A stretch of DNA of 64,000 bases. It comes from an uncultured Rhodospirillaceae bacterium. GTDB lineage: Bacteria > Pseudomonadota > Alphaproteobacteria > Rhodospirillales > UBA2165. The notes beneath the pieces were generated by a model that made no database searches, was not told the DNA's origin, and saw nothing but the letters and a program-made list of their open reading frames with translations. The DNA is taken from assembly GCA_964611435.1 (NCBI GenBank), contig CAZSXT010000003.1, positions 102,100 to 166,099 of the forward strand. Direction: 5' to 3'. A program made the translations under genes and the position numbers. This document shows positions 1 to 61,837 of the stretch, one piece after another; position 1 is the stretch's first letter; the number at the start of each line of letters is the position of its first letter.

Positions 1-2
1 AG

Positions 3-209
3 TGGGACGAACGGCCGCTGTTGGTCTGCGTCCTGGCCGACGGCCAAAGCGTCGAACCGGTGGAGCTATTGAATATTTACGACGGGAAGGTGGCCAAATG
101 GTGGGTGCCGGACGCGGTGGAGTTTGTCGACGAACTGCCCCACACGGCGACCGGCAAGCTGCAGAAAATGACGCTACGGGAGAGGTTTAAGGATTACCGG
201 GTGGCCTGA
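3..209 (+). CDS. C-terminal fragment of an AMP-dependent acyl-CoA synthetase/ligase (ANL superfamily); 5' end outside window
   Basis: Frame is open from the window edge to TGA 207-209. The peptide ...[30 protein letters not shown] matches the conserved C-terminal subdomain (TGK lysine) of acyl-CoA ligases. Recognised by eye. Confidence 0.6.
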
Positions 210-216
210 GGCCGGC

Positions 217-1161
217 CTAATATTCCACCGGCGCGGCTTTATCCTTGCGCACCACCATAAAGATGCCGGCGCAGACCAGCACGCCGCCGGCAATGTGATA
301 ACTGAACAGCTGCTCTCCCAATAGCCAAATACCCAGACCGGCGGAATAGATCGGCATCAGGTTCACGAACACGGCCGCCTTGTTGTGGCCGACCACCCGG
401 TTGCCGGTGTTCCAGAACGCCAGGGACAGGATCGAAATCAGGATCGCCAGCACCAGCGACCAGCCCAACAGCTCCCAGGTAAACGGCGTCGGGCGATAGT
501 AGTAATGCTCGATCAGCCAAGCGGGCGTCAGGAAGATCGTGCCAAATACCAGGATCACGGCCAGCGCCGGAAACACGCCCAGACCCGCCGGCATACGACG
601 CAGGTTCACGGCATAGGACGCGTACATGATCGTCGCCACCACGGTAATCAGGTCACCGATGTTGAAATCCAGGCTCCGGACAACCCCCAGGTCGGCCCGG
701 GAAATCATGATCGACACCCCCGCCAGCGCAGACAACACGCCCATGAGCTGAGTTTTATTGAGTCTATCCCGGAAGAGTATCCAGGCGATGCCGGCGGTCA
801 GCACCGGCTGGGTCGCATTGACCAGTCCTGAATTGGTCGCCGTGGTGAAGTTCACCCCGACAAACAGCAGCACCCCGCCGCCGACCATCAAAAACCCTTC
901 CATCGCAAAGTAACCGAGGTTGGCCTTGACGATATCCATGTTCTTGGAAATCGTCCCCCAGCAGAAGGGTAGCATCACCAACACCGCAATCGACCAGCGC
1001 CCGAAAGACAGACCCAGGGGCGGAATTTCTTGATGCACCGCGCGGGCAATAACCACGCCGGCCGACCAGAAAAACACCGTAATCGCCAGCAGGGCATAGG
1101 CTTGGCCGGGTTTGACCTTCAGGGCGCCGGAGGGTGCGTCGTGGCTGGAACTGTCGGACAT
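217..1161 (-). CDS. DMT superfamily (EamA-like) transporter
   Basis: 314 aa and strongly hydrophobic, with about 10 predicted TM segments in two repeated halves, typical of EamA/RhaT proteins. Confidence 0.8.
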   Translation of the reverse strand: MSDSSSHDAPSGALKVKPGQAYALLAITVFFWSAGVVIARAVHQEIPPLGLSFGRWSIAVLVMLPFCWGTISKNMDIVKANLGYFAMEGFLMVGGGVLLFVGVNFTTATNSGLVNATQPVLTAGIAWILFRDRLNKTQLMGVLSALAGVSIMISRADLGVVRSLDFNIGDLITVVATIMYASYAVNLRRMPAGLGVFPALAVILVFGTIFLTPAWLIEHYYYRPTPFTWELLGWSLVLAILISILSLAFWNTGNRVVGHNKAAVFVNLMPIYSAGLGIWLLGEQLFSYHIAGGVLVCAGIFMVVRKDKAAPVEY

Positions 1162-1255
1162 TGCAGGGGAATTCTTGTTGTTTTGCTTCTGCGTTCGGCG
1201 TGGAATTTACGGCGCGGGACAGGCTTTGTCACGCATTTGGGGGGGGTATTGGACG

Positions 1256-2002
1256 CTAGTCCAATTCCATCGTGCCGCCGTCCATGGGCAGCGCGCCGGT
1301 GAGCCACTGGCGCATCAGCTCATTCACCGTTTCCGGGCGCTCCAACGTGATCAGATGCGCCGCCTCGGCAATCAGGGCGAGCTTGGCCTTGGGCAGGAGT
1401 TTCAACATGTCCCGGGACAACTCGGGCGGGAGAAGTTCGTCCAGGGCGCCGCACAGCACCAATGTGGGGCACATCACTTTGGGCAGGAAATCGGTCAGAT
1501 CGGTCGCCGCCGACAGCGCGCTCACCTGTCGGGTGAAGCGGTCCGGGCCGACCGAGTCCGCCATGTCGTTAACGGTCTTCACCAGACGCTGATTACCCTG
1601 ATTGTCCGGCTGCAGAAACAGTTTCAGCATCTGCGCTTTCACCGCGTCGAACTCGCCGGCGGCGGTCGCGTCCAGCATGGCGCGTCGGCGGGCCTGGCGG
1701 GCTTCACCCTCCACCGCGGCGGTGCTGTCCAAGAGGCCCAAATGGGTTACCCGGTCACCGCCCAGTTTCTTGACCAAAAGCGCCACATAGCCGCCCATGG
1801 AGCTGCCGGCGATGGCAAACTTGGGCGGAGATTCGGTGAGGATCGCCTGGGCCATCTCCTCCACCGTATCGTGGCGGAGATGGGCGCGGGTCACCACCAC
1901 CGTGCCGAGATCGCTCAAACCCTCGACCTGCGGCTGGAACAGCGCCTCGGTGCCGAGCAAACCCGGCACCAGAACGAGATGAATGTGATCGGCCATCCGC
2001 AC
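1256..2002 (-). CDS. alpha/beta-fold hydrolase
   Basis: 248 aa. Has the nucleophile elbow GSSMGG (GxSxG) after an N-terminal LVLVPG strand, and a C-terminal H in an AAHL context. Confidence 0.75.
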   Translation of the reverse strand: MRMADHIHLVLVPGLLGTEALFQPQVEGLSDLGTVVVTRAHLRHDTVEEMAQAILTESPPKFAIAGSSMGGYVALLVKKLGGDRVTHLGLLDSTAAVEGEARQARRRAMLDATAAGEFDAVKAQMLKLFLQPDNQGNQRLVKTVNDMADSVGPDRFTRQVSALSAATDLTDFLPKVMCPTLVLCGALDELLPPELSRDMLKLLPKAKLALIAEAAHLITLERPETVNELMRQWLTGALPMDGGTMELD

Positions 2003-2026
2003 CTCCCTAGACGTCGAGGCGAAATG

Positions 2027-4132
<2,106 letters not shown>

Positions 4133-4226
4133 CTCGATTCCCTTTTATCCGTAAACCTCGCGATATGCCGGGCGGGAACCTAATGGATCGTGTCCGCCGG
4201 TTCAAACGGGGATTCTATTGTGAGAC

Positions 4227-4934
4227 CTACCCCTCGTTGGGCAGGCAGGTCACCGCGTATTCGTGGGTGATTTTGCGGCCCAGGACCGGGTCATCCAGCT
4301 CGATCCGGAAGGCGTCCATGGGACGGACGCCACCGATGACGGCCAGAGTGCCGCAATACATCAACGTGCCGTCGGCGAGATCACCGTCCGCGGCTCCACC
4401 TATATGCTGGCTGTAGCGGCCGATCAGTTCCTCCGGCGCCAGCATGGTGGTGACCGGGCCTTCCTGATACAGGCTGGCGTCACCGCCGGTCACCGCCCAG
4501 GCGCGTAGCATAAGCTGGTCCCAGTGGTCGATGACTTCCTCATAGGCCCAGAGTTGCGGCCCCACCGGCTTGGCGCAGGCTTGCTTGGAGATGCTGACGT
4601 TCTGTGTTTCCACCTTTCGGTCGGTGTGATCGGAACCGACCCCCAGCCACATGGTTCCCTGCTGGGCGATCAGCACGAACTCCACCTCGCCGGAAGAATC
4701 ATCGCCGACCACTTCGATGGCGCCGTCGGTGGTCAGCAATTCCGCCGCGCCGCGATAGAAGATCGGCGTGGTCTTGGGTCGGGCGACGCCGATTTCCTCC
4801 AGCTCCTTGATGTGGGCCTCCATGGCCTCTTTGTTGCGGCCGGTCCAGCCGGCGATCACAAGATTATTGATGGTGATCTCGGCCTGGCGCGCCGCGCCGT
4901 CTTTCGGCAATTGTTCAAAAGTCAGAATAGGCAT
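4227..4934 (-). CDS. DUF2848-like protein (uncharacterised, FAH-fold related)
   Basis: 235 aa. The N-terminus ...LVIAGWTGRNKEAMEAHIKELEEIG... resembles the DUF2848 family as I remember it. No search was run. Confidence 0.55.
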   Translation of the reverse strand: MPILTFEQLPKDGAARQAEITINNLVIAGWTGRNKEAMEAHIKELEEIGVARPKTTPIFYRGAAELLTTDGAIEVVGDDSSGEVEFVLIAQQGTMWLGVGSDHTDRKVETQNVSISKQACAKPVGPQLWAYEEVIDHWDQLMLRAWAVTGGDASLYQEGPVTTMLAPEELIGRYSQHIGGAADGDLADGTLMYCGTLAVIGGVRPMDAFRIELDDPVLGRKITHEYAVTCLPNEG

Positions 4935-5006
4935 GAGGTCCTCTTCAAGTGTGCTCTGCCGAACCCGGTCGGGTTTTCATGGTATTGGCGAGATGGAGTC
5001 TGAAAA

Positions 5007-6500
5007 TCACTGCCAATCGGTATACTCCGCGTCACCGGCGGCCGATTTCTCGGGAATGTCGTATTGACCCATCACGTGGTCGACCACACTCTCGAACATT
5101 TCCCAGGGCGCTTCCCGGAAAGAATGGTTGCGCACGATGAACGACGCGCCGGCGTAGAACTTTTCATATTGTTGCTGGCGGCCGGCAAATTCAGAGCCCA
5201 CCACATCCCAAGCGAGCCGGAACAATTTCATCCGGTCGGCGGCGCCCATTTGCGGTGTCTGGAAGTAAGCCTCGAAATCCTCCCGTAGTTTTTCGTCGTG
5301 CACCACAGAGATGCTCGCCGGCATCTGGAATACACCGCCGCCGCAAAGTTCCCGCAGGACATCGACGATCATGGAATGGTTTTCCGTGCACCAGTTGAGG
5401 GCTGCGTACATCATGCGCCGGTTGTAGGTCGTGTATCCCTCCGGCCAGCTTTCCGCGGCCTCGATTTGGCCATGGATCATGCCGGACAAAGTCGCTTCCA
5501 GCGCCGCCATTCGGCCCAGGGTCTCTCTGACCGCCGGCACCTGATCGGCGCCTGTGGCTTTGGTCACCCTGCTGCAGAGACCGGTGATCAGCTCCATCTT
5601 TGACCAGAAACGGACATTGGCCTGGTGGTTGCCATAGCAATGGCCGGGGGATCGAATATAGATTTCGCGGGCGAGGATGGCGTCATCCATGACGAACACC
5701 TTCTCCCACGGGACCTTGACGTTGTCGCACATGACCAGAACGTCGGTTTCATCCATGTTCCAAGTCAGTGGCGAGTCGAACTGATTTTCCGCATTCAGAG
5801 AGATCGGCTGACGCATCCACATCGTTAGCCCGGGGATATTGCAGGGAATCCCACAGGTGACAGCCTGTTTCACCTGATCCGGCGCCAGGGGCAATAAGTT
5901 GCCGATCCAAATTTCATCACAGAAGACGGCGCTGGTGGCCAGCATCTTCATGCCGGAAATGGTGACCCCTTCTTCATCTTCATCGACCACCATCAGGGTC
6001 GGGATCGGCAGATTATTTTTCTCGTAGAATTCCGGATTGCGGGCGGCCTGGGGCGGCAGCACGGCATAGGTGGCGAACAGATCACCTTTCTTCATGTATT
6101 CGTAATAAGAAACGATGTTCTTACCGAACTGGTATTCATCGGTGTCAAATATTGACGGGCTCGTCGCCATACCGGTGACAAAGCTGGCCACGTGATCCAT
6201 CGACCGGCCCATCATGCCGCAGGTCTGATCGGCGATCAGCTTGTGGGCGGTCGTTCGCTTGCGAAGATCTTCCCGGCTTTTGGCCTGGAGAAACCACATG
6301 GAATACCGCTCGCCATCTTCTTCATAGCTCAGCGCGTCCTGTAGCTCAGGATCGTGCTTCAGATCATAAAGAGCGGCGACGGTCTTTGCCGCCTCCCGGA
6401 ACGCCGGGTGGGTGGTGACATCTTCAACTTTCTCATCACCGATATAAACGACACGGCCGTCCTTGAGGCCTTCGAGATGTTGTTTGCCTGTTTTGATCAA
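5007..6500 (-). CDS. 4-hydroxyphenylacetate 3-hydroxylase family flavin-dependent monooxygenase, oxygenase component (HpaB-like)
   Basis: Family-typical N-terminus (GKQHLEGLKDGRVVYIGDEKVEDVTTHPAF) and length. The start is moved to TTG at 6500, preceded by GGGGAG. The track ORF extension to 6587 would overlap the MarR gene. Confidence 0.85.
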   Translation of the reverse strand: MIKTGKQHLEGLKDGRVVYIGDEKVEDVTTHPAFREAAKTVAALYDLKHDPELQDALSYEEDGERYSMWFLQAKSREDLRKRTTAHKLIADQTCGMMGRSMDHVASFVTGMATSPSIFDTDEYQFGKNIVSYYEYMKKGDLFATYAVLPPQAARNPEFYEKNNLPIPTLMVVDEDEEGVTISGMKMLATSAVFCDEIWIGNLLPLAPDQVKQAVTCGIPCNIPGLTMWMRQPISLNAENQFDSPLTWNMDETDVLVMCDNVKVPWEKVFVMDDAILAREIYIRSPGHCYGNHQANVRFWSKMELITGLCSRVTKATGADQVPAVRETLGRMAALEATLSGMIHGQIEAAESWPEGYTTYNRRMMYAALNWCTENHSMIVDVLRELCGGGVFQMPASISVVHDEKLREDFEAYFQTPQMGAADRMKLFRLAWDVVGSEFAGRQQQYEKFYAGASFIVRNHSFREAPWEMFESVVDHVMGQYDIPEKSAAGDAEYTDWQ

Positions 6501-6519
6501 AGCCGATCTCCCCTTTGAG

Positions 6520-7080
6520 TCAGTCGTCCGTACCGGTACGGCGGCTTTCCATGGAATTCTGATAGTGTGCGGTCGCCAACGTACCATCGGCGTTGGCGGT
6601 GAACTTCTCTAAAAGGTCTCGAAACAAATTGAACTCCTCCCGGCTGAATCCGGCAAAAAGTCCGTCATTGACCTCCGCTGTCACCGGGGTAACGGTTTCG
6701 ATTGCCAGGGTGCCCTGCGCTGTCAAGGCAACCAATACGGAACGCCGGTCCTCCGCATTGGGGATTTTATGGACGTAGCCAATTCTCACCAATTTGCCGA
6801 CCTCGACGGTCACGTGAGACGACGCGACTCGCAATTGAGATGCCACCTCTTTGATGGATACACCCCGTCCGTCATGCCCCCGAGCAATGACCATCAATAT
6901 CTGATACTGCCGCCCAGTTAGGCCGATCTTATCACCCATTATGGCGCGCAGCTCTTCCAGCATTTGCCCGGTAGAGAATAGATTGTGAATCGTCCGACGC
7001 AGCTCGTGGTCGTTACCATCAAGTAATACTGTATCCAGCGACGCGCTAAGCGGTGGCGTGTACGAGGCGTTTGAATTCAT
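6520..7080 (-). CDS. MarR family transcriptional regulator
   Basis: 186 aa. Winged-helix core ...LTGRQYQILMVIARGHDGRGVSIKEVASQLRVASSHVTVEVGKLVRIGYVHKIPNAEDRRSVLVALT... A perfect palindrome lies just upstream. Confidence 0.85.
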   Translation of the reverse strand: MNSNASYTPPLSASLDTVLLDGNDHELRRTIHNLFSTGQMLEELRAIMGDKIGLTGRQYQILMVIARGHDGRGVSIKEVASQLRVASSHVTVEVGKLVRIGYVHKIPNAEDRRSVLVALTAQGTLAIETVTPVTAEVNDGLFAGFSREEFNLFRDLLEKFTANADGTLATAHYQNSMESRRTGTDD

Positions 7081-7101
7081 GAACCAAACTATCTACGTAA
7101 T

Positions 7102-7122
7102 TTATGTATGTAACATACATAA
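7102..7122. promoter_or_regulatory. perfect 21-bp palindrome, candidate MarR autoregulatory operator
   Basis: TTATGTATGT-A-ACATACATAA starts 22 bp upstream of the MarR start (7080) and sits in an AT-rich intergenic region. Confidence 0.5.
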
Positions 7123-7161
7123 TAGACCGGCCGAATTGAGTCAAAGAAAAGTTCTCAACTT

Positions 7162-7551
7162 TTAGGAATCGTCGGCGTCGTAGTAATAATGCAGCTCGAA
7201 CATCACGCAGCCCTTCTCTGACTTGAAGGGCCCGTGGAACACGCCCGGCGGGCGGCACGCATAAGTCGGCGCGTGAAATTGTTCACCCCCTTCGCCGTTT
7301 TCGTCGTTGCCGACGATCAGATCGCCTTCAACCAAGTACACCTCTTCCCAGTGATCATGAACAAAGGGCGCGGTGGAATAGACGCCCGGCAGGATGCGCA
7401 GGAACCGGGACCGGCTGCCGGTCTTGCCGTCTTCATCCAGGTCGCTGGTCAGGACCTTCTGTTGCATGCCGGCGGGATAACCTTCGGGCTCTTCCCAGCC
7501 CTCGTCCATGTTGAGGGGCAGAAATTCCAGATGGGGTTTGCCTTTGCCCAT
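7162..7551 (-). CDS. monocupin protein
   Basis: Beta-rich sequence with ...HDHWEEVYLVEGDL...GVFHGPF. The start is set at ATG 7551, preceded by GGAGGAACACATT. The track ORF start at 7614 lacks an RBS. Confidence 0.7.
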   Translation of the reverse strand: MGKGKPHLEFLPLNMDEGWEEPEGYPAGMQQKVLTSDLDEDGKTGSRSRFLRILPGVYSTAPFVHDHWEEVYLVEGDLIVGNDENGEGGEQFHAPTYACRPPGVFHGPFKSEKGCVMFELHYYYDADDS

Positions 7552-7700
7552 AATGTGTTCCTCCGAACTTGGCGCCTTTTGTGTAGTCCCTGGCACCGGG
7601 TAAAAATAAGTCATTGAAATTGCGTCGTTTTATTTTCGCTGGTGCCAGGCACCTTTTCAAGCGGTGGAATGACTCGCGTCGTGACGTCCTTTCTGTTAAA

Positions 7701-7726
7701 TTAGCTAAGCTACTTAGTTAATTAAG
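7701..7726. promoter_or_regulatory. near-palindromic AT-rich site TTAGCTAAG-CTA-CTTAGTTAA in a divergent promoter region
   Basis: Seen in sequence between the cupin gene (minus) and the UbiD operon (plus). It shares the CTAAG/CTTAG pentamers with the motif family listed below, but the half-site geometry differs. Confidence 0.35.
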
Positions 7727-7767
7727 TCAATAAGCCAATCACCACGTTGTCACCACGGGAGGCGGCT

Positions 7768-9144
7768 ATGGCCACGAAAAACACCCTGGATAAGGACCTT
7801 CGCGGATACCTGGACACCAACAAGGATATCCTGACAGTGATCGACAAGCCGGTGTCCATCGACGATATCGGCGCGCTCTCGGCGCAGAGCGAGGGCCCCA
7901 TCCTGTTTGAAAACATCAAGGAGCATCCAGGTTTCCGCCTCTGCGACATGCTGGTGAAGCGGCGCTGGACCCAATGCCGGACCTTGGGCGTCGCGGAGGA
8001 AGACTATCTGCCGACCCTCGCCCAGCGCCTGCGCAAGCCGCCCCGGGGGCTAGTGGATGTCGACACCGGCCCGGTAAAGGAGGTGATCTGGACCGGGGAC
8101 GACGTGGACTGGCTTAAACTGCCGATTCCCATCCATTCCGAGGACGAGACCGAACCGCTGGTCACCGCCATGAACATCGTCAAGGACCCGGAGACCGGGT
8201 TCTACAATTCCTGCCACGCCGCCACCCAGGCCGTCGGCCCGCGCACCGGTCTCGTCAGCTTTGTCACGCCGCACACCCATGCGGTCATGCAGAAATACAT
8301 CGAGCAGGGTGCGACCGAGATGCCCATCGCCATCGTTTTCGGCATTCCGCCGGCATACGAGATCATGGGCAACTTCTCAGGCCTACACATGGATTTGTGG
8401 GGGGAGATGGAAATGGTCGGCACGATTATGGATATGGATATAGAGATGGCGCCCTGCGAGACCATCGACCTGACCATCCCCGCCCATGCGGAGATCGTCG
8501 TCGAAGGCACCATCAACCTGGTCGACAAGACCGACATCGGCATCGGCGTCGGGCCGTCCATGTATTATTTGCCCAAGCAGGCCTCGCTGCCGGAGATCAA
8601 TATTACCGCGATTACCATGCGGTCCGACCGGCCGATTTACCGTAATCACCAGACCTGCCCGGACACGGATCATCAGCCCCTGCCCCGGCTCTGCCATGAA
8701 GCGGTTCTCTACAACAGGGTCTCTGAAATCGGCATCAAGGTGCACGATGTGCAATTCCCGACCTGGGGCGCGGCGCTCTCCTGCATCATCAAGCTCGAAG
8801 CGCCCCGCGAAGGATTCGTCAATGATGCGCTGATGCAGTGCATGGGCGCGCCGTGGCTCAACACCAAGATGGTGGTCGCGGTCAGCCCGGACACCGACAT
8901 CAACGACCCGGCCCAGGTCTATCACGCCATTGCGACGCGCTGTGATCCGTCGCGGGACATCATCACCGTGGACAATACCCGTGGCTCCCCCTACGACCCG
9001 TCGGCCGCACCTCTGGACGCGTTCTGGCGGACGGTGGGTAAGATCGGCATCGACGCCACCCGCAAGTCCCGCCACAACGCGGGCGACTTCGGCCGGTCCT
9101 GGCCCAAGAACTGGGGCAAGGCCGACCTCAACGACTATCTTTAA
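7768..9144 (+). CDS. UbiD family (prFMN-dependent) non-oxidative decarboxylase
   Basis: About 458 aa with UbiD-like features throughout (LRGYLD...ILFENIKEHPG..., central acidic/metal region, C-terminal ...GIDAT.K). ATG 7768 is preceded by GGGAGG. Confidence 0.85.
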   Translation: MATKNTLDKDLRGYLDTNKDILTVIDKPVSIDDIGALSAQSEGPILFENIKEHPGFRLCDMLVKRRWTQCRTLGVAEEDYLPTLAQRLRKPPRGLVDVDTGPVKEVIWTGDDVDWLKLPIPIHSEDETEPLVTAMNIVKDPETGFYNSCHAATQAVGPRTGLVSFVTPHTHAVMQKYIEQGATEMPIAIVFGIPPAYEIMGNFSGLHMDLWGEMEMVGTIMDMDIEMAPCETIDLTIPAHAEIVVEGTINLVDKTDIGIGVGPSMYYLPKQASLPEINITAITMRSDRPIYRNHQTCPDTDHQPLPRLCHEAVLYNRVSEIGIKVHDVQFPTWGAALSCIIKLEAPREGFVNDALMQCMGAPWLNTKMVVAVSPDTDINDPAQVYHAIATRCDPSRDIITVDNTRGSPYDPSAAPLDAFWRTVGKIGIDATRKSRHNAGDFGRSWPKNWGKADLNDYL

Positions 9145-9157
9145 AGGAGAAACGACG

Positions 9158-9778
9158 ATGGATGCACCCAAGCCCAGGACTACAGAAGAACCGGAACCGT
9201 TTATTCCCTATGTGGAGGAAAAAGACTATCCGGAAAGCCTGCTGCCTTTACTCGGTCCGTATATCGAGCGCATGGGGTTTCTGCCCAACGCGCTTAAGCT
9301 CTATATGCACCGCCCTGAAATCGCCGGCACGTTGTTCGCGCTCAACAGCAATATCATGCGTGATCCGTCCTCGACCCTGGATCAACAGCTCAAACGTAAA
9401 CTGGCCGCCGTCGCCAGTAAGATCAACGGGTGCACCTATTGAACCAGTCATCACTGCGGCGTGCTGCAGAACGATGGAGAAGACGGCGCCGAAGGCTGGG
9501 ATGTGGACAACGCGGAACTGACCGAGTTGCTGACCGACCCCAAGCCCAAGGACGAATTCGAGAAGGCCTGCTTTGATTACGTTGAGGCTGCTTCTTTCGA
9601 CCCTGCCAATGTGCCGGACGAGGTGCTGGACAATCTCAAGACCCACCTGAGTCCGCCGCAAGTTGTGGAACTCGCCTGCGTGGTGGGTTTTTGGAAAATG
9701 TACAACACCATCCACGACAGTCTGAAAATCCCGCTGGAACAGCATCTTCACGGGGTTTCCGGCTTTGTGGATCTCTGA
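9158..9778 (+). CDS. AhpD/carboxymuconolactone-decarboxylase (CMD) family peroxidase-related protein with in-frame TGA (probable selenocysteine) at 9440-9442
   Basis: RBS AGGAGA at 9145-9150. Two same-frame ORFs are split only by the TGA. Read-through gives ...KINGCTY[TGA]TSHHCGVL..., which is the family C-x-Y-C-x-x-H signature. C-terminal ...VVELACVVGFWKMYNTIHDSL is CMD-like. The stop overlaps the next gene start (TGATG). Confidence 0.6.
9449..9477 (+). other. candidate bacterial SECIS hairpin
   Basis: Core stem CUGCGG/CUGCAG (9454-9459 with 9464-9469, including one G-U pair) with apical loop CGUG. It begins 12 nt after the UGA and is extended by CAUC/GAUG (9449-9452, 9473-9476). Folded by eye only. 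Confidence 0.35.
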
Positions 9779-10314
9779 TGGCGGACACGTTCCCGCCCCT
9801 CACCGTCAGCCGGAAGGCCCTGCTGGAAGACAGCGGCGATCAAGCCTTCCGGCAGATGGTCTATGATCTGCTGACCGTCTCCGTCCGCATGCAGCGGGTG
9901 CGGGATGAGGTCGCCGGGTTGTTGGGGGTCACCGGTCCACAGCACAGTATCCTCATGTACATCGCCCACTTCGCCGGCGACCGGGGCGTCAGCGTCAAGG
10001 AAACGGCTGACCATCTGCACGTCTCCGGTGCGTTTGTCACCGTCGAGGTCAAAAAGCTGATGGACTGCGGCTGGCTTCATAAACTGACCGACCCGGACGA
10101 CCGCCGCCGGGTGCGGCTGCTGCTTAGCCCCGAAGGTGAACGGCGGATTACGGATATTGCGCCCGTTCTTTGCCGCATCAACGATATGTTCTTCGGCGGC
10201 CTGTCGTCGGAAGACTTCGACCGGCTCCGCGACATGGCGGCACGGCTGGTGGATGGCTCGGAAGACGCCTTGGGCTTGATGCCGTCGAGCCTTGATGCCA
10301 TAGCATCCGCCTGA
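9778..10314 (+). CDS. MarR family transcriptional regulator
   Basis: 178 aa. ...LLGVTGPQHSILMYIAHFAGDRGVSVKETADHLHVSGAFVTVEVKKLMDCGWLHKLTDPDDRRRVRLLLS... The ATG overlaps the upstream stop, indicating translational coupling. Confidence 0.85.
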   Translation: MADTFPPLTVSRKALLEDSGDQAFRQMVYDLLTVSVRMQRVRDEVAGLLGVTGPQHSILMYIAHFAGDRGVSVKETADHLHVSGAFVTVEVKKLMDCGWLHKLTDPDDRRRVRLLLSPEGERRITDIAPVLCRINDMFFGGLSSEDFDRLRDMAARLVDGSEDALGLMPSSLDAIASA

Positions 10315-11147: not shown

Positions 11148-11650
11148 CTAATTATAGTCATCCACGGGCAGGCGAAGCCCAGACCCGTGGATCTATTTTA
11201 AACACAGAGCACACAGAGAGCACAGAGAGGCTATGTTGGTCTCCGTTATCTCCGTGTCCTCTGTGATCTCTGTGGTGAATCATTCACTCCTCTTCTTATA
11301 TGCGTCACCCCCGAGTTGGCGCAGCCAAGTCTCGGGGGACCATGGGTAGCCGTCGCATGGTTCCCCGACAACCGCTTCGCGGGCCTGCCTCCGCCGAAGC
11401 GAAGCTCCGGCTTCGCGCAGGTAGGTTGGGAATGACGCGTCTGGGAAAAGGGACAAAAGCGGGACGTTGGGTGCCAGGCACCAGAAAGTATGGCACCAGA
11501 ATGTATAAACACGAAGGTCACAAAGGACTCGAAGACTATCAAATGTCTCTGCCTCTTCGTGAACTTCGTGCACTTTGTGGTGAATTTATCTGATCACCCT
11601 CCTCCGTGCTGCCGCACGACCCCTCCCATCAAGAGAGGGGTGATCGGTCG
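11148..11650 (+). repeat. mosaic extragenic repeat cluster 1 (modules B-C-D-E, degenerate C copy, G/C-run hairpin)
   Basis: Hairpin modules shared with clusters at 33.8, 35.4, 37.0 and 44.2 kb: B 11151-11190, C 11203-11280, D 11301-11346, E-half 11363-11383, GGTGCCAGGCACC palindrome 11469-11481. Lies between convergent gene ends. Confidence 0.8.
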
Positions 11651-18553: not shown

Positions 18554-19837
18554 CTAGACCGTCGCCGGATCGGTGCCGAGCTCGGCGAACAGGCCGTCCC
18601 GGGCGCCGATGGAGAAGTCCACATCCCGGTCCAATTCGACCGCGGCGGAGCGGACCCGCTGGTGCGCCGGATCAAGACCCATGATCTCGCCGCCTTCTTC
18701 GTTGGCTTTGGCGGCCTTGATCAGATACTGCCGAGTCATGGTGACGCCGTTGTCGGTACCGCAGAGATGCTCCTTGGTGCGGTCCTGGATCGGGCCCATG
18801 CTTTCCTGCAGAGAGGCATCCTGCATGCCGATACCTTCGATGCCGCTGTAGTGGATGCCCATCCGCTGCGCGTTCCGGTCCATAAGGTAATCATTGTCCT
18901 TGTTAGCCAGCGGGCGGAAAGTGCCGGGAATATTTTTCACATGGATCCCCTTGCCATCGATCATCGCTTCTCGCTCTTTGCCGGTCAGCGCACGGTTCGG
19001 ATGGTAGTTGAAGCTCCAGGCCCAGCAATTGTGATCATCAATCGGCACCCAGGCATGACCGCCGATCGGATGGCCGGCGCGTGGTGCGATCAAGGTATGG
19101 AACGGCATGATCCAGGGCGTGATCCGCCAATAGTATTTGTCATTGTCCGCGTTTCGCCGAGCGCCGATCAACAGCCCGCCTTCGAACGGCTTCACGTCGA
19201 ACACCGGCATCAGGTCTTCTTCGTTGTAGCGGTTGGCCTTGCTGCCTTTGAACAAAGGATCAGTATTAAGCTGGCCCCCATGCAGCCAGGTCACGTGGCT
19301 CGAATCGATGCCGCCTTCCAGTGCCTGCAGATAGTTGCATTCCTGCAACCGCTTGGAGACATAGAGCTGATCCGGCGCCACATTGGTCCATTCAAAGTTC
19401 GGGTCGGCGGGTTTCTTTTCCGGCGGTCCCATATAGGCCCAGACCACGCCCCCTTTTTCGATGCACGGATAGGATTTCAGGCTCACCCGTTCCATGGCCT
19501 TCGGGTTGTTGCCTTCTGACGGCAGTTCGATGCACTTGCCGTTGATATCAAATTTCCAGCCATGATAGGGGCAGCGTAGGCCGCATTCTTCGTTGCGGCC
19601 GAACCATAGAGACACGCCCCGGTGGGCGCAGTATTCGTCGATCAGTCCCACCCGCCCTTCAGTATCGCGGAACACAACCAGCTCTTCCCCCAGCAATTTG
19701 ACCCGCACCGGATCGCTGTCCGGCCTTTCGATTTCGCTCGATAGCAAAAAAGGCAGCCAAAAACGCCGCATCATTTCGCCCATGGGCGTACCGGCGTCGG
19801 TCTGACAGAGATAATCGTTTTGTTCCTGCGTGATCAT
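18554..19837 (-). CDS. Rieske [2Fe-2S] aromatic ring-hydroxylating oxygenase, phthalate-dioxygenase family (alpha-only type)
   Basis: 427 aa. Rieske motif CAHRGVSLWFGRNEECGLRCPYHGWKF and an N-terminal NDYLCQTDAGTPMGEMMRRFWLP typical of class IA oxygenases. Confidence 0.85.
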   Translation of the reverse strand: MITQEQNDYLCQTDAGTPMGEMMRRFWLPFLLSSEIERPDSDPVRVKLLGEELVVFRDTEGRVGLIDEYCAHRGVSLWFGRNEECGLRCPYHGWKFDINGKCIELPSEGNNPKAMERVSLKSYPCIEKGGVVWAYMGPPEKKPADPNFEWTNVAPDQLYVSKRLQECNYLQALEGGIDSSHVTWLHGGQLNTDPLFKGSKANRYNEEDLMPVFDVKPFEGGLLIGARRNADNDKYYWRITPWIMPFHTLIAPRAGHPIGGHAWVPIDDHNCWAWSFNYHPNRALTGKEREAMIDGKGIHVKNIPGTFRPLANKDNDYLMDRNAQRMGIHYSGIEGIGMQDASLQESMGPIQDRTKEHLCGTDNGVTMTRQYLIKAAKANEEGGEIMGLDPAHQRVRSAAVELDRDVDFSIGARDGLFAELGTDPATV

Positions 19838-19871
19838 GTCCCTAACTCCAATTCTTGGTTCCTATTAAAAC

Positions 19872-19888
19872 GGCTTAGAGTCTAAGCC
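19872..19888. promoter_or_regulatory. perfect 17-bp palindrome GGCTTAGA-G-TCTAAGCC
   Basis: Seen in sequence. It overlaps the stop codon of the EutA-like gene and lies 35 bp upstream of the Rieske gene start. TTAGA/TCTAA half-sites with a 1-nt spacer. Confidence 0.45.
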
Positions 19889-21366
19889 GCCAGACTATTT
19901 TCCTCCGGGAAGAGCAGCGATTTGATCACCACGGGCACCGCGCCAGTGGACCTCAATACTTCGCCGATATCGATAAAATCGAACTCTCTCAGCTGTATGC
20001 CATCAATGGAGACAATGGGCGTCGCCAGCTTCTCCTCCTCCCGGCAATGAATGCCTAGCAAGCCGCCGATATCTCCGTCTATGACCAGGATCAAGGGATG
20101 TTCGGCATCAAGTTTCACCTGAACCCCGGCGATCAGCCCCTGACACAGCGCCTGCAACCGGGCGAAACTGGCTGTCCCCGCCCAGGGAAAGGCGATAGCA
20201 ACCGGCTGATCTTCGGTGTTGAGATCAAGCCGGATTAGGGCCTGCTTCACACCGTCCTCGATCACGGCTTTGTCGATCTCTTCACCGGACAGGTCCAGCT
20301 CCGGCGCGATGACCGCAATATTGGTCAGCGGCAAAGTCTCCGGCGGATCCATATAGATCGTGCTGCCCGACACCTGCACCGTGTACTGAGACGCGCCGAC
20401 CACTGTCGCCCGGATGCCCTGCAAAGGTTCGGTAATGGCGATGTTCATGGCCTCAATCTTGGATCGCAACGCCGCACCCAGCTCCCGGCCCAGATCGCCG
20501 AAGCCGGCAGCCTCACGCCCGTAGAAATACTCGGACACCCCGCCGGACACGATGACATCGCCCGGGGCTTCAGCGTAGCTGAGGGGCGGCAGTCTGAGGC
20601 GTGCACCCAAATCCTCACCCCGCATAGCCCGGCAGACTTGATCCGCCATAGCGTTGGCCAACTCGTCCCGCTGATCGTCGGTTATCCCGTCACCCACGTT
20701 TAACGTCAGACCGAGTTCGTCGAGATACGCCCGGCCGGTGGGCTCAATCCGTTCTATCCGCCCGCCGCCGTCTACAACGACCAATCGCGCACCGGCCTCG
20801 ACGGCGGTCATTGTGGCCACTTCGCCGTCCACGCAGAGGGCGATCTTGGTCGTCCCGCCGCCGACATCGATGTTCAACACGGGATGGCCGTTGCGGATGG
20901 AGAGCGCCAGCGCGCCGGACCCGTGCGCCGCCATCAAGGTTTCCAACCCATCCCCGGCGCTGACCGCCACGAACTTGCCAGCCTCGGCCGCGAACAGTTC
21001 CCCGATGGCGCGGGCGTTTTCCCGGCGCACCGCCACGCCGGTGAGGATCAGTGCGCCCGTGTCGATTTCGTCGGGACTGATCCCGGCCTTTTCATATTCT
21101 GCCGCAATGAAGTTCCCCAGCCGGTCGGCGTCGATGGTATTTTCCGCCGTATAGGGGGTGATCAGGATGTCCGACTGATGGCGCACAATCCGCTCCGCCA
21201 CCACATAGCGGCTGTCCAGCCGCTCCAGAACGATGGTCGAGAATAATAAATGCGATGTCGAAGAGCCGATGTCGACGCCGACGCTCGACAATTCGATCAC
21301 GTCCTCTTCGATCAGGCTCCGGCCCGTGTTGGAGAAGAATATGCGCCCGCTATCGCCGGTCATCAA
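19882..21366 (-). CDS. EutA-like ASKHA-fold ATPase (homolog of the ethanolamine ammonia-lyase reactivating factor), orphan context
   Basis: 494 aa. VGVDIGSSTSHLLF (phosphate-1), ...IDTGALILTGVAVRRENARAI..., VLNIDVGGGTTKIAL, and C-terminal ...FIDIGEVL...VPVVIKSLLFP are colinear with EutA as I recall it. No eutB/eutC in the window. Confidence 0.75.
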   Translation of the reverse strand: MMTGDSGRIFFSNTGRSLIEEDVIELSSVGVDIGSSTSHLLFSTIVLERLDSRYVVAERIVRHQSDILITPYTAENTIDADRLGNFIAAEYEKAGISPDEIDTGALILTGVAVRRENARAIGELFAAEAGKFVAVSAGDGLETLMAAHGSGALALSIRNGHPVLNIDVGGGTTKIALCVDGEVATMTAVEAGARLVVVDGGGRIERIEPTGRAYLDELGLTLNVGDGITDDQRDELANAMADQVCRAMRGEDLGARLRLPPLSYAEAPGDVIVSGGVSEYFYGREAAGFGDLGRELGAALRSKIEAMNIAITEPLQGIRATVVGASQYTVQVSGSTIYMDPPETLPLTNIAVIAPELDLSGEEIDKAVIEDGVKQALIRLDLNTEDQPVAIAFPWAGTASFARLQALCQGLIAGVQVKLDAEHPLILVIDGDIGGLLGIHCREEEKLATPIVSIDGIQLREFDFIDIGEVLRSTGAVPVVIKSLLFPEENSLAA

Positions 21367-21378
21367 GTGTCTCTATGT

Positions 21379-22617
21379 TCAGGTTTGAACGTACTTCCGG
21401 TCCGGGTTCGGCGACAGATCATTGGGCGTCAAATAAAGCTCATCGCCCATCTGGGACGCACCGCCGGCAGCCGCCAGCTTTTCCTCGAACTCCCGGCGAA
21501 CGTTCGGGTCTTCCATCCAGTAGGGAATGGAGGTCCCGCCTTCGTGCAGGTCCATGCCCGTATAGTCGATCTGCGTGTCGCCAGGGGCCTTGGCCTCCAG
21601 GCTCGGATGGTTGGGGCCGAACCAGGCGGTCAGGCGGAACGGCTCCTTCGACACATTGAAATGCTGATGATACCAGCGCGCGCCGCCGGGCGCCGCCGTG
21701 ATCATCCCAACAGGCTCGTAATCCAGGCGCTGCACCTGGTCACCGTTGCCGTCCTTCCACGGCGTCGGGCCCAGACGTTCCGGCCAAGTATGGGTATAGC
21801 CCTTGCCTTTGACGCAGATCAGCACCGCCGCCGAGGTATGCGCGTGGGCCTTGGAATACTTGCCCGTATCGTGCTGACCGACCCAGAGATAGAACTTGTT
21901 GTTGGTCATGAATGGTTCGACCCGCCGCCAGCCGGGCGACCGACGGTTATCCAACGGCAGCTCGCAGTTAAAAATATCCGGCACCATATTAGTGCGCCGC
22001 ATGGCGAGCCCGCGGATCGGATCCGGCTCGATATCATCAGAGGGTTTGTAGAAATCCTCGTCGTCGGTAAACCGGTCGGTGAACTGATACGGGCAGTTGA
22101 AAACCATATCCACATTGCCCAAGAGGTTCATCAGGTTTGGCGCTGTCGTGCCCGCCAGCAACAGCGCCGGGCTGGAGGTTGCGTTAACGATCCGGTGGTA
22201 GGCGTTCACCGGGATGGAGAACAGCGAGCCGGTCTGCCACTCGAAAACATGCTTCTTGCCGCCCTCTTCCAGCCACACCTCGGTCGTGCCCCGGCCCTCG
22301 ACCACCAGGAATATTTCTTCATAGATATGCCGTTCCACATTCAGCGCGCCGGCAGCGGGGACTTCGACCACATAGCTGCCCCATTTACCCTCTGTGCCGT
22401 AAAGCTGGATGAAATGGCCGCGCCCACCCATCCGCTTCCAGTCATGCAAGGGCAGATTTTGAACCTTTTCGATGCCGAGCCCCCTGAACGTGGGAATGCC
22501 CTCCGCCTTCATGAACCGGTCATAGGTCAGCTCGGGAAACTTGAATTCGCCATAGCCGGCCCGCTGTTCCCCCGTGGGTTCGTGCCAGTGGACCATTCCG
22601 TCGAGTTCATGAGGCAT
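21379..22617 (-). CDS. bicupin metalloprotein (gentisate-dioxygenase-like superfamily; same family as 49894 and 51009)
   Basis: 412 aa. C-terminal cupin with KAHAH...G.G and WYHQHFN motifs; N-terminal cupin ERHIYEEIFLVVEGRG. Shares IEYEDQDP/IPYWMEDP and GGAS(K/Q)MG blocks with the 49.9-52.1 kb paralogs. RBS GGAGA. Confidence 0.7.
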   Translation of the reverse strand: MPHELDGMVHWHEPTGEQRAGYGEFKFPELTYDRFMKAEGIPTFRGLGIEKVQNLPLHDWKRMGGRGHFIQLYGTEGKWGSYVVEVPAAGALNVERHIYEEIFLVVEGRGTTEVWLEEGGKKHVFEWQTGSLFSIPVNAYHRIVNATSSPALLLAGTTAPNLMNLLGNVDMVFNCPYQFTDRFTDDEDFYKPSDDIEPDPIRGLAMRRTNMVPDIFNCELPLDNRRSPGWRRVEPFMTNNKFYLWVGQHDTGKYSKAHAHTSAAVLICVKGKGYTHTWPERLGPTPWKDGNGDQVQRLDYEPVGMITAAPGGARWYHQHFNVSKEPFRLTAWFGPNHPSLEAKAPGDTQIDYTGMDLHEGGTSIPYWMEDPNVRREFEEKLAAAGGASQMGDELYLTPNDLSPNPDRKYVQT

Positions 22618-22638
22618 CCTACTCTCCTGTAATCACAT

Positions 22639-23160
22639 CTATTGGCCGCCGAACAGCAGGCCCGGAAACACTTCATATTGCATCAATTGGCTAAACACGA
22701 TCCAGGTAAAGGCCGTGGCGGCCACCGCCGACCAGGCGCCAACCTTGACGCTTTTCCTTCCTTGGAAGACGACAAACGTTAAGACGTAAATCGGGATCGA
22801 GATCAGGAACCCGACAAAATAGACAAGGACCACAAACGCCACCGGCCAGACCATCGCCACCAGGACTTTGCGCATGGGTTGGGCGGCGACCGCTTCGCCG
22901 CTGGCTTCGCCCACGATGGTGCCGGTGAAGAACGTCTTGATCCCATTGCCGAGCGCCGTCCCCGTCGCGGCAACCAAATCGAGCACGCATAAGACGATCA
23001 GGCTCCAGCCCACCAGGACCGGCACTTGCTGTGCTTTTTGATCGTAAGTGTAGGACCACGTCAGAAAGATCACGGCAAAAGCCGACACGATAAGCGGTGG
23101 CAACAAGTTCAAGATCATCTTGTCCGAATGAGGAGAATTCATGCCCGCTGAGTCAGCCAT
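22639..23160 (-). CDS. tctB: tripartite tricarboxylate transporter small membrane subunit (TctB family)
   Basis: 173 aa, 4 TM segments, located directly after tctA. Confidence 0.75.
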   Translation of the reverse strand: MADSAGMNSPHSDKMILNLLPPLIVSAFAVIFLTWSYTYDQKAQQVPVLVGWSLIVLCVLDLVAATGTALGNGIKTFFTGTIVGEASGEAVAAQPMRKVLVAMVWPVAFVVLVYFVGFLISIPIYVLTFVVFQGRKSVKVGAWSAVAATAFTWIVFSQLMQYEVFPGLLFGGQ

Positions 23161-23163
23161 GGC

Positions 23164-24660
23164 CTACGCCTCCCGTTTCCGGTTTCGCAGCCAGCCCCGT
23201 ATCGAAGGCGACAGAATAATTAACACTGTCGCAATCAACAGAACCGCGGAAATGGGCCGTCCGTAGAAAATGGAATAGCTCCCATCGCCGATCATCATGG
23301 ATTGGTGATAGCTCCGTTCCGCCAGTTCGCCCAAAACCAAGGCAATCACCGCCGTGATGCGGGGATAATCATAGCGGATCATCAAAAACCCAATGATGCC
23401 GAAGATCATGGCGACAGCGACATCGCCCATGCTGTTGTGGAGGGCATAGACCCCGACCAGAGCCACGGCGACCACCGTCGGCGCCAGGATGTGAACATCG
23501 ACCAGGGTGATGAGAGACAGCCAGCGTGCCAAGATCAAGCCGATGATGGAGGCCAGAATCGCCGCCGAGGCGACGGCAACGATCAGGCTGAACACCACGC
23601 CTTCGTGTTCCACCAGCATCATCGGACCGGGCTCCAACCCGTGCAGGATCAGAACGCCCAGGAAAATCGCCATCTCCGCGCTGCCGGGGATGCCGAAAGC
23701 CAGGGTCGGGATCAAAGCGCCGCCGTCCTTGGCATTATTGGCGGATTCCGGCGCGATCACGCCTTGGATGTTGCCGGTGCCGAAACTTTCCGGATTCTTG
23801 GAAGCCTGCACCGTGGACGCATAAGACAGAAACGAGGCCACCGTACCGCCCACGCCCGGAATGGCGCCAATAAACGCGCCGATGGCGGAACCTCGCAGCA
23901 AGATGGGCACATTCCTGAAAACCGAGACAATACCATCGCTGACCCGGGAAATTTTCATGCTTGCGCCGTCGCCCGACACGACCCGACCGCCCTTGAGCGT
24001 CAGGTTGATCATCTCGGCGATGGCGAAGACGCCGGTCAGCGTGGGCACCAGCCGCACCCCGTCCAGCAGATACTCAACGTCTCCCGTAAACCGGTCGCCG
24101 CCATTGACCGCGTCCAGACCCACAAAGGCCAATGCTAAACCGACACCGCCGGCGATCAGCCCCCGCAGGAACTTGCCCCCGGTGGAGAGCGCAATCGCGC
24201 CGAGACCCAGGATGGCGAGGGCGAAGAACTCCGGTGGGCCAAACAGTAGAACTATTTCCTTGGCGATGGGGATCACGGCCATCAGGATCGCCACGCCCAA
24301 AATACCGCCGAGGGACGACGCCGTCGCCGCCGCGCCGATGGCCATGCCCGCTTTGCCCTGTTGGGCCAAGGGGAAACCGTCAAAACAGGTCGCCGCGTTG
24401 GGCGCAATGCCCGGGGTATTTAACAAAATTGCCGAGATCGACCCGCCGAACGCGACCGAACCCATCACCCCGCCGATAAGGGTGATCGCCTCCGCCGGCT
24501 GCATGCCAAATGTAAGCGGGATCAACAGCGCGATCGCCGTTGTGCCGCCCAATCCAGGTATCGCACCGAACACGAGGCCGATGCCCACACCCAGACATAG
24601 GTAGAGCGAGCCTTTCAGGGTGAACAGAAGTGCCAGGGCTTCTGTGGCGGATTCAAACAT
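23164..24660 (-). CDS. tctA: tripartite tricarboxylate transporter large permease (TctA family)
   Basis: 498 aa polytopic protein. ...GAIPGLGGTTAIALLIPLTF... and ...GAIPGVGGTVASFLSY... are duplicated TctA signatures. Confidence 0.9.
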   Translation of the reverse strand: MFESATEALALLFTLKGSLYLCLGVGIGLVFGAIPGLGGTTAIALLIPLTFGMQPAEAITLIGGVMGSVAFGGSISAILLNTPGIAPNAATCFDGFPLAQQGKAGMAIGAAATASSLGGILGVAILMAVIPIAKEIVLLFGPPEFFALAILGLGAIALSTGGKFLRGLIAGGVGLALAFVGLDAVNGGDRFTGDVEYLLDGVRLVPTLTGVFAIAEMINLTLKGGRVVSGDGASMKISRVSDGIVSVFRNVPILLRGSAIGAFIGAIPGVGGTVASFLSYASTVQASKNPESFGTGNIQGVIAPESANNAKDGGALIPTLAFGIPGSAEMAIFLGVLILHGLEPGPMMLVEHEGVVFSLIVAVASAAILASIIGLILARWLSLITLVDVHILAPTVVAVALVGVYALHNSMGDVAVAMIFGIIGFLMIRYDYPRITAVIALVLGELAERSYHQSMMIGDGSYSIFYGRPISAVLLIATVLIILSPSIRGWLRNRKREA

Positions 24661-24691
24661 GGGATGGGCTGATACGGTTGGTCATTATATT

Positions 24692-24720
24692 AAAAATCCG
24701 GCGGGAGACTCCCCGCCGGA
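24692..24720 (-). terminator. intercistronic intrinsic terminator/attenuator between tctC and tctA
   Basis: On the minus strand: TCCGGCGGG-6 nt-CCCGCCGGA followed by TTTTTAA. An A-run on the other side makes it formally bidirectional. Confidence 0.6.
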
Positions 24721-24743
24721 TTATTTCAGTACAATCAAACGGC

Positions 24744-25709
24744 CTAATTGGATTTTGCCAAGGCCGCCGGATACTTCTTGAAGATCGCCAGCGCCTTATC
24801 GACCGCGGCTTGTGTATCAGCACCGCTGAGGTGACCGAATGGCCGGCGAGTCTTCTTCGCCCAAGCTTGGGAATCCGTATCCGCAATCGCCTTGCCGACG
24901 GCATCGGACAGAATCTTGGCAATATTGGCCGGTGTGCCCGGCGCAGCCGCCACCATCCGCTCGACGCCCAGGCCGGTCAGTTCGGGATAGCCAGCTTCGG
25001 CGATTGTCGGCACACCCTTGAAGCTGGACTTCTCTTCGAAGGTGACCACGCCATGGATGTCGCCGGATTTCACGAACTTATTAAAGGTCTGTGTCGGCGC
25101 AATGCCGGCATCGCCGTCACCGCGAACCACGCCGACGATATATTGTTTCGATCCTTTGTAGCCGGTCACAAACTGCACTGGGAAACCGACCACCGTTTTA
25201 AAGATGCTCGCGCCGGTGTAGGCGGTCGAGCCAAACCCGGTGGACAGCACTTTGACGCTCCGCCCCAAGTTCTTGAGATCGGCCACGGTCTTGATGCTGC
25301 TTTTGCCGCTAACGCCGAACAGGTAGGGGCTGGTCGACATGCGCCCGACCCAAACGAATTTGGTCACGTCGAAATTGACCTTCTGGCCGGTGAGCTGCGG
25401 GATGATCGCGCCCGGCATGTTGATCACCGAAATCGTGTAGCCATCGCCGCCCGCCTTGGCGAGAAGACCATAACCTTTGCGGCCGCCGGCGCCCGGCACG
25501 TTCTTCGGCACCACATTGACCTTATTGGGCAGGTATTTGCCCATGTTCTTGGCCACCTGACGGGACGTGCTATCCATGCCGCCGCCGGGGCTGAAGGGAA
25601 TCAGAAAAGTGATGTCTTTTTCCGGAAACGCGGCTTGGGCGTTTCCAACAAATCCGGCCGCCACAAACGCAGCCGCGGTGCTTAGAATGATCTTCGATTT
25701 CATTGCCAT
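24744..25709 (-). CDS. tctC: TTT family (Bug/TctC) periplasmic solute-binding protein
   Basis: Signal peptide MAMKSKIILSTAAAFVAAGFVGNAQA, then ...FLIPFSPGGGMDSTSRQVAK...NVPGAGG... The start is set at ATG 25709 (or 25703), after GGAGGAAA. The longer track ORF overlaps the aldolase gene. Confidence 0.85.
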   Translation of the reverse strand: MAMKSKIILSTAAAFVAAGFVGNAQAAFPEKDITFLIPFSPGGGMDSTSRQVAKNMGKYLPNKVNVVPKNVPGAGGRKGYGLLAKAGGDGYTISVINMPGAIIPQLTGQKVNFDVTKFVWVGRMSTSPYLFGVSGKSSIKTVADLKNLGRSVKVLSTGFGSTAYTGASIFKTVVGFPVQFVTGYKGSKQYIVGVVRGDGDAGIAPTQTFNKFVKSGDIHGVVTFEEKSSFKGVPTIAEAGYPELTGLGVERMVAAAPGTPANIAKILSDAVGKAIADTDSQAWAKKTRRPFGHLSGADTQAAVDKALAIFKKYPAALAKSN

Positions 25710-25767
25710 TTTCCTCCGTGTTTGGCGCTGGACGAACCTCTCGTCCGCCGATTGTTCACTATAATTA

Positions 25768-25796
25768 TTAGCTAAGAATTCTAAGTAAATTTGCGG
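25768..25796. promoter_or_regulatory. operator-like site TTAGCTAAGAATTCTAAGTAAATTTGCGG (TTAGA-N2-TCTAA family)
   Basis: Seen in sequence about 60 bp upstream of tctC (minus). Core TAAGAATTCTAA. The flank TCTAAGTAAATTTG closely matches the sites at 46265 and 49841. Confidence 0.45.
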
Positions 25797-25812
25797 GCCC
25801 TCGCAATCCGAA

Positions 25813-47638: not shown

Positions 47639-47655
47639 GCCTGTACGTGAATCAA

Positions 47656-47692
47656 GGGGAACGGGTCGCCAGCCGATCCGTCTCCCCTTTTT
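47656..47692 (+). terminator. intercistronic intrinsic terminator/attenuator between the TTT receptor and permease genes
   Basis: GGGGAACGG-13 nt-CCGTCTCCCC followed by TTTTT, 18 nt after the stop codon. Confidence 0.55.
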
Positions 47693-47730
47693 CATTTTGC
47701 TCATCCCCCTGCCCCTAGGTCGGAAGACTC

Positions 47731-49791: not shown

Positions 49792-49840
49792 GGCAGCAGT
49801 TTAGAAGTGGTTTTCAATCAGGGGACAGACTTTATACTGG

Positions 49841-61836: not shown

Positions 61837-61837
61837 G

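Follow-up and report, generated by a model that had tools for sequence, protein, structure and literature searches.

AhpD-like selenoproteins, in which selenocysteine (Sec, U) stands at the second cysteine of a CxxC redox motif, have been known from the Sargasso Sea since a 2005 report by Zhang, Fomenko and Gladyshev (PMC1088965), and in the Global Ocean Sampling (GOS) data they rank among the most abundant families, with 299 Sec sequences for AhpD-like 1 and 70 for AhpD-like 2 (PMC2398784). AhpD-like 1 corresponds to COG2128 and AhpD-like 2 to Pfam PF02627 (PMC1088965; PMC2398784, Zhang and Gladyshev 2008). An AhpD-like selenoprotein family is also included in present-day databases, and because of these reports and this entry the kind of protein, the position of Sec and the mechanism are already established. 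Here, we describe a gene of this kind at positions 9158–9778 of a 64-kb stretch of DNA from an uncultured Rhodospirillaceae bacterium (contig CAZSXT010000003.1). This stretch is called the window below, and all coordinates are window positions. The gene carries an in-frame TGA at 9440–9442 that, judged from the comparative sequence data, very probably encodes selenocysteine. Its product is a further member of the known AhpD-like CxxU selenoproteins, with which it is compared by description and not by accession. An initial annotation, made from the letters of the window, had stated that AhpD-like selenoproteins are known and had proposed one inside a UbiD operon; the statement agrees with PMC1088965 and PMC2398784, and the proposal is supported by the cysteine column, the conservation of TGA, the selection downstream of it and the contrast in a hairpin between Sec and Cys forms.

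Translation of the forward strand gives one frame of 207 codons (206 residues and a stop) across 9158–9778, in which TGA 9440–9442 is the sole internal stop. The listed open reading frames (ORFs) 9158–9442 and 9461–9778 share this frame and, as the initial annotation had it, are parted by that TGA alone; on reading past it, the product runs ...KINGCTY[TGA]TSHHCGVL.... The elements of the gene, with their basis, are:

9158–9778, forward strand: predicted AhpD-like/CMD-family selenoprotein gene, ATG start, TGA stop at 9776–9778 (translation, Pfam, homologs, AlphaFold2 model).
9144–9149, forward strand: Shine–Dalgarno sequence AAGGAG, 8 nt 5′ of ATG 9158 (read from the sequence).
9431–9433, forward strand: TGC codon for Cys92, with which the C-x-x-U redox motif begins (invariant alignment column).
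9440–9442, forward strand: in-frame TGA, predicted Sec95 at the second cysteine of CxxC (homolog alignment, identical assemblies, diverged orthologs).
9449–9451, forward strand: CAT codon for the invariant His98, three residues past Sec, as in Bmp8 (alignment).
9448–9477, forward strand: SECIS-like hairpin with lower and upper stem and the loop CGUG (folding energy, bacterial SECIS constraints, contrast with Cys forms).
9454–9479, forward strand: 26-nt block without any change among the Sec-form orthologs, even at synonymous positions (ortholog alignment).

The position of the TGA in the protein is precise. In an alignment with 23 full-length homologs (62–78% identity) each of the 23 has Cys at the position of the TGA, which bears out the initial annotation in placing the stop at the second redox cysteine of the CMD/AhpD signature. 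N90, G91, C92, Y94, H98 and C100 are invariant in this alignment and form the block N-G-C-x-Y-C-x-x-H-x-C, so that the predicted redox motif reads C92-T-Y94-U95-T-S-H98. The protein search returned more than 1,000 homologs, nearly all of them single chains of ~206 aa. TGA ends 16 of the 54 genes in the window and the standard code therefore applies; reassignment of TGA was considered as an explanation and is ruled out on the same count. A codon log-likelihood scan found TGA 9440 to be the only TGA in the window with a coding signal on both flanks. A further scan for in-frame TGAs, based on GC content at third codon positions (GC3), was dropped as uninformative because antisense frames show higher GC3.

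The TGA recurs in independent data and in diverged relatives. Exact matches to the 94-residue N-terminal fragment are recorded in 43 blocks of the assembly collection, and the gene is identical, TGA included, in 10 of the 10 contigs inspected, which come from independent assemblies of different JGI and ENA samples and from different pipelines. The split form (94 aa plus 105 or 106 aa) is found on dozens of contigs, in 9 + 23 sequence variants, and metagenome-assembled genomes (MAGs) of Rhodospirillaceae at NCBI are among its sources. Diverged orthologs were retrieved by look-ups of cluster members and by a degenerate DNA pattern for the Sec form, which returned four loci from genome and metagenome contigs. 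TGA is kept in a Rhodospirillaceae MAG at 90% nucleotide identity (L011), at two loci with 81% identity (L012, L013), at two with 78% (L014, L015) and in the lineage carrying HON14 locus tags (L019–L021). In all the diverged Sec-form orthologs it stands at the same codon, and the frame remains open to the same stop with no additional stops or frameshifts; Sec-form assemblies are GCA_018657025.1, GCA_018672875.1, GCA_018698635.1, JAYQGD01 and CAJWAR01. The ratio of nonsynonymous to synonymous substitution rates (dN/dS) is ~0.03–0.05 in codons 114–206 and 0.03–0.08 in codons 1–94, where dS is unsaturated, and the low value past the TGA means that the downstream part is translated in this frame. 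The placement of the TGA on the catalytic cysteine column, taken with these comparative data, is far beyond chance.

The RNA directly downstream folds as the initial annotation had foreseen, into a hairpin with a CGUG loop and the geometry of a bacterial selenocysteine insertion sequence (SECIS). It is the minimum-free-energy (MFE) fold of 9447–9479 (−11.7 kcal/mol) and consists of a 6-bp upper stem (9454–9459/9464–9469), the apical loop CGUG (9460–9463) and a lower stem (9448–9452/9473–9477); the upper stem follows the UGA after a spacer of 11 nt, and the loop after 17 nt. The bacterial SECIS (bSECIS) model allows a loop of 3–9 nt and an upper stem of 4–16 bp, with G in the first two loop positions, a UGA–loop distance of 16–37 nt and an MFE of at most −7.5 kcal/mol (PMC13188914). 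The hairpin at 9440 lies within all of these limits, with its 4-nt loop, 6-bp stem, G at loop position 2, distance of 17 nt and energy of −11.7 kcal/mol. In the protein model it overlaps residues 101–110, the internal stretch of lowest confidence, with a block mean of the predicted local distance difference test score (pLDDT) of 85; only the block 31–40 is marginally lower.

Several observations weigh against a reading of this fold as a SECIS. Among the 1,911 TGA triplets of the window, 12% have an upper stem that is equally or more stable in an allowed position; the longer 61-nt stretch 9440–9500 has a different structure as its MFE fold; and the RNAalifold consensus on the Sec forms favours another, long-range structure. 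Pair counting on the Sec forms gave no compensatory changes or covariation in the hairpin, because it is invariant within the clade. The bSECIS fit has low specificity, and the hairpin taken alone is weak evidence. Given that base rate, the invariance and the alternative folds, the support for the element comes from its footprint at synonymous sites and from the contrast between Sec and Cys forms, and not from fold prediction. Positions 9454–9479 are identical in all Sec forms, whereas most codons vary at synonymous sites; counted over conserved residues, codons are identical at 9 of 12 in codons 96–108 against 36 of 145 elsewhere (Fisher p = 7e-4). The Cys-form ortholog P0002 encodes a near-identical peptide with CAUG and UUGCUG instead of CGUG and CUGCAG, and its best comparable hairpin is degraded, at only −3.1 kcal/mol. 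Four Cys forms were checked including P0002, and the three more distant ones have essentially no comparable hairpin.

These comparisons suggest how the gene would be expressed, and from them we infer SelB-dependent insertion, a selenium-containing product and an electrophilic substrate. As the ribosome nears the UGA, SelB with GTP and Sec-tRNA(Sec) would bind the hairpin 11 nt downstream through its apical loop C-G-U-G, and the bound complex would deliver Sec in place of termination by a release factor. Translation would then proceed to the stop at 9776–9778, where it would be coupled to that of the MarR gene. The predicted product is a 206-residue AhpD-like (CMD-fold) thiol/selenol oxidoreductase with the redox centre Cys92-Thr-Tyr-Sec95 (CxxU) followed by His98. 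Sec95 would stand in for the second AhpD-type cysteine and, with Cys92, cycle between selenol/thiol and selenenylsulfide, a cycle that may reduce a peroxide-derived or other electrophilic substrate. The Sec version would have been derived from a Cys ancestor in a narrow clade of marine Rhodospirillaceae.

Other explanations of the in-frame TGA have to be weighed against selenocysteine. The UGA might be read through with Cys or Trp at residue 95, by near-cognate decoding or by a Cys-charged tRNA(Sec), in which case the conserved hairpin would be a mere stimulator of read-through. Such decoding accounts equally well for the selection on the downstream frame and for the conserved RNA block. It also fits the outcome of the search for Sec machinery, a result that counts against Sec as far as it goes: selA, selB, selC and selD were not found in the window, in its ~10-kb flanks or at related loci, a sample too small to be informative when the genome measures several Mb. 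An Rfam scan of the window at gathering thresholds gave no matches, neither tRNA-Sec nor a SECIS family, and ARAGORN likewise detected no tRNA genes there or at 16 related loci. In Alphaproteobacteria the gene for tRNA-Sec can lie embedded within selB (PMC13188914). Read-through without Sec is nevertheless improbable, as the hairpin has the specific bSECIS geometry with G-U in the apical loop and the UGA falls exactly at the redox cysteine in a family with documented CxxU selenoproteins. Without a Sec system, moreover, a leaky stop would bring no gain over an efficient TGC, and yet TGA is kept across ~20% nucleotide divergence.

A genuinely split or truncated gene, which would yield the 94-residue fragment only or a second polypeptide of 105 residues from GTG 9461, is what all pipelines in effect propose when they call two ORFs of 94 and 105 aa; GTG is a possible start codon, and a fragment translated on its own would likewise explain the selection on the C-terminal part. 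However, inspection of the sequence directly 5′ of GTG 9461 revealed no Shine–Dalgarno sequence, none of the three substitutions in codons 96–97, which lie between TGA and GTG, alters the amino acid, and the homologs are single chains. Splitting would also lose the nucleophilic residue and part Cys92 from His98 and Cys100, which are invariant in the family, and the predicted model is one compact domain across the junction, all of which makes two separate products highly improbable. A pseudogene or a sequencing or assembly error would call for a single base change, either an inactivating change of TGC to TGA or a miscalled base. The TGA is, though, identical in the 10 independent assemblies, which differ in sample and pipeline, and kept in orthologs that differ at ~10–22% of nucleotides, and the downstream part shows the dN/dS of ~0.03–0.05 given above and no additional stops or frameshifts, so that this explanation can be regarded as already effectively refuted. 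Selenocysteine at residue 95 thus stays the preferred reading.

Within its subfamily the Sec form is rare and confined to one narrow clade of marine Rhodospirillaceae. In the search with the N-terminal fragment, two clusters (at 90% identity) end at ...NGCxY while 92 others continue with Cys, which marks the Sec form as derived, in this one lineage, from an ortholog group made up mostly of Cys forms. Few substitutions make the UGA and the hairpin, namely TGC to TGA, AUG to GUG, CUG to CAG and UUG to CUG. Sec and Cys orthologs occur in the same neighbourhood in related marine bacteria, which offers an unusually clean natural comparison and a view of the route from a Cys enzyme to a selenoenzyme. 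The current view of selenocysteine decoding is unchanged by this locus. All public annotations (NCBI, JGI and ENA) split the gene into hypothetical proteins of 94 and 105 or 106 aa, for example HON14_19820/HON14_19815 and HN731_04425, and in several public Rhodospirillaceae MAGs these two split proteins merit merging into one selenoprotein.

The gene lies in the middle of a three-gene module whose other members are:

7768–9144, forward strand: UbiD-family decarboxylase gene of the type that uses prenylated flavin mononucleotide (prFMN), directly upstream in the same operon (Pfam UbiD and UbiD_C).
9778–10314, forward strand: MarR-family regulator gene, the third gene of the module (Pfam MarR_2, gene calls).

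The UbiD-family gene ends 13 nt upstream of the CMD gene, and the MarR ATG at 9778 overlaps the selenoprotein stop TGA 9776–9778 in a TGATG. The initial annotation had noticed this overlap and held that it made sense only with read-through; the overlap exists but does not by itself call for read-through, and the Sec-form relative L019 lacks it. Among relatives with a solved structure, PDB 6h6x/6h6v (E = 3e-39) is closest to the UbiD protein; the entry is deposited under a generic name, and we take it to be HmfF, the 2,5-furandicarboxylate decarboxylase; the JGI name for the protein in the window is 2,5-furandicarboxylate decarboxylase 1. The window shows no UbiX gene. The UbiD/CMD/MarR trio is present in all Sec forms, in the Cys form of a Rhodospirillales MAG with locus tag VB913, in a Burkholderiales locus (L025) and in an Acidobacteriota locus (L026), and the position of MarR is conserved in L015, L019, L022, L025 and L026. 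The Cys form P0002 is syntenic with the Sec forms L019–L021 over tRNA-U5 methyltransferase, UbiD, CMD, MarR, YaaA and fumarylacetoacetate (FAA) hydrolase, and some relatives have the oxidative-stress genes OsmC and YaaA on the flanks of the module. The module is missing at the homolog locus of a Binataceae genome (L027), and a tblastn search against plasmids gave homologs of at most 26% identity and no cultured carrier of the module. Its recurrence hints that a prFMN decarboxylase and a CxxC/CxxU redox protein are functionally linked in a way as yet uncharacterised.

The fold and the redox motif bear on what this link might be. The protein reaches 25.2 bits against the cut-off of 23 for Pfam PF02627 (CMD), and its AlphaFold2 model (pLDDT 93) is an all-helical AhpD/CMD fold that continues as a single compact domain through the TGA junction, with template modelling scores (TM-scores) of 0.7–0.8 against AhpD/CMD structures. 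The best structural matches in PDB are the debrominase Bmp8 (TM-score 0.74–0.82), uncharacterised ‘peroxidase-related’ proteins and AhpDs; Bmp8 (6ohi/6ohj) is also the top PDB match by sequence, with E = 4.5e-8 and ~21% identity. Homologs are named ‘alkylhydroperoxidase family enzyme’ or ‘uncharacterized peroxidase-related enzyme’ at JGI. With M. tuberculosis AhpD and proteins of the PA0269 type, it shares the all-helical CMD fold and the C-x-[H/Y]-C motif at the start of a helix, followed by His; the disulfide/dithiol redox cycle would likewise be common to them. In canonical AhpD the relay runs through Glu, Cys, His/Tyr, Cys and His; the Glu precedes the first Cys by 12 residues and the His stands at +4 from the second. 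This Glu is Glu118 in M. tuberculosis AhpD and Glu36 in PA0269 (PMC3141380). This proton relay is not found in the protein encoded by 9158–9778: unlike in canonical AhpD, the position of the relay Glu is held by an invariant Arg80 and the invariant His98 lies at +3 from the second Cys/Sec instead of +4, and no AhpC gene is adjacent. Bmp8, by comparison, has the C-x-Y-C-x-S-H motif with identical spacing, and the relay Glu is missing in both proteins. Bmp8 is a marine bacterial enzyme that acts on an aromatic substrate with oxidation of Cys to a disulfide (PMC5577590). Unlike the protein described here, however, Bmp8 is a Cys protein within a bromopyrrole biosynthetic cluster; no halogenase or bmp-like genes occur in the 64-kb window, and nothing here points to halogenated substrates.

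A bolder and rather unlikely proposal is that the protein is not a general peroxide-defence AhpD but the specific partner of the HmfF-like UbiD decarboxylase encoded next to it. Such a partner may be a redox accessory by which the decarboxylase, or its prFMN cofactor, would be kept in its proper state. Alternatively, it may be a Bmp8-like reductive enzyme that acts on the aromatic substrate or product of the decarboxylase, a reading for which there is room because the relay Glu is replaced by the invariant Arg80 and the motif has Bmp8-like spacing. If this second version were true, the Cys-to-Sec switch in one marine clade would parallel the selenium-dependent deiodinases, in bacteria.

The remainder of the window is occupied by genes for aromatic-compound catabolism. 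Two paralogous sets, 18554–25874 and 46355–53723, each comprise an EutA-like protein, a cupin protein and a TctABC tripartite transporter; the EutA-like genes (19882–21366 and 52131–53723) are unusual amid aromatic catabolism. LigXa-type Rieske oxygenases are encoded at 18554–19837 and 40429–41700, and a bicupin gene of the gentisate-dioxygenase-like type is duplicated in tandem (49906–50991 and 51021–52106, 76% nucleotide identity). Intergenic repeats of ~70–135 nt, 83–90% identical, occur in at least three regions (11150–11352, 33856–34052 and 44174–44426) and are candidates for a repetitive extragenic palindromic (REP) or miniature inverted-repeat transposable element (MITE)-like element or for a regulatory or terminator module. 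At 58808–63954 lie genes for a YeeE/Sulf_transp transporter, a GcvH-like (lipoate-binding) protein and HdrC/HdrB/HdrA-like proteins of the sHdr type, and the right flank (L028, positions 1–10000) carries DsrE, a second Hdr-like set, SoxYZ, SoxA, a SoxB-like gene and DsbD. The bacterium itself seems to be a marine sulfur oxidiser of the family Rhodospirillaceae.

Among known systems, the SECIS of E. coli fdhF has a minimal upper stem-loop of 17 nt that lies 11 nt after the UGA, with a bulged U and the loop GGUC. The hairpin at 9440 resembles it in starting 11 nt past the UGA and in having G-U at loop positions 2–3; it differs in its loop, CGUG, and, which counts against a SECIS here, in having no bulged U in the stem, and binding by SelB is presumed. 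At the level of protein families, NCBI expects Sec in two groups of AhpD-related proteins, NF041238 ‘alkylhydroperoxidase-related (seleno)protein’ (AhpD_rel_CFYUT) and NF053654 ‘YciW-related (seleno)protein’. The name of the former implies C-x-Y-U-T, and the motif here is CTYUT, but NF041238 is a model of 357 positions, the match is confined to its C-terminal half, and it is a different subfamily. Scores fall below the NCBIfam cut-offs for TIGR01926 (63.4 against 81.8), NF041238 (43.9 against 175) and NF053654 (28.6 against 310), which places the protein, by profile scores, in the AhpD/CMD superfamily but outside every curated NCBIfam subfamily. The AhpD-like 1 and 2 selenoproteins of PMC1088965 and PMC2398784 differ from it in that neither this subfamily, with its rare Sec form limited to one Rhodospirillaceae clade, nor a tie to a UbiD–MarR module has a mention in the sections of these accounts that describe them. 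They otherwise match the protein of this locus in their CMD/AhpD fold, in a CxxU motif with Sec at the second Cys position, in their origin from marine bacteria, in their many Cys homologs and in a SECIS hairpin that lies within the coding region directly past the UGA.

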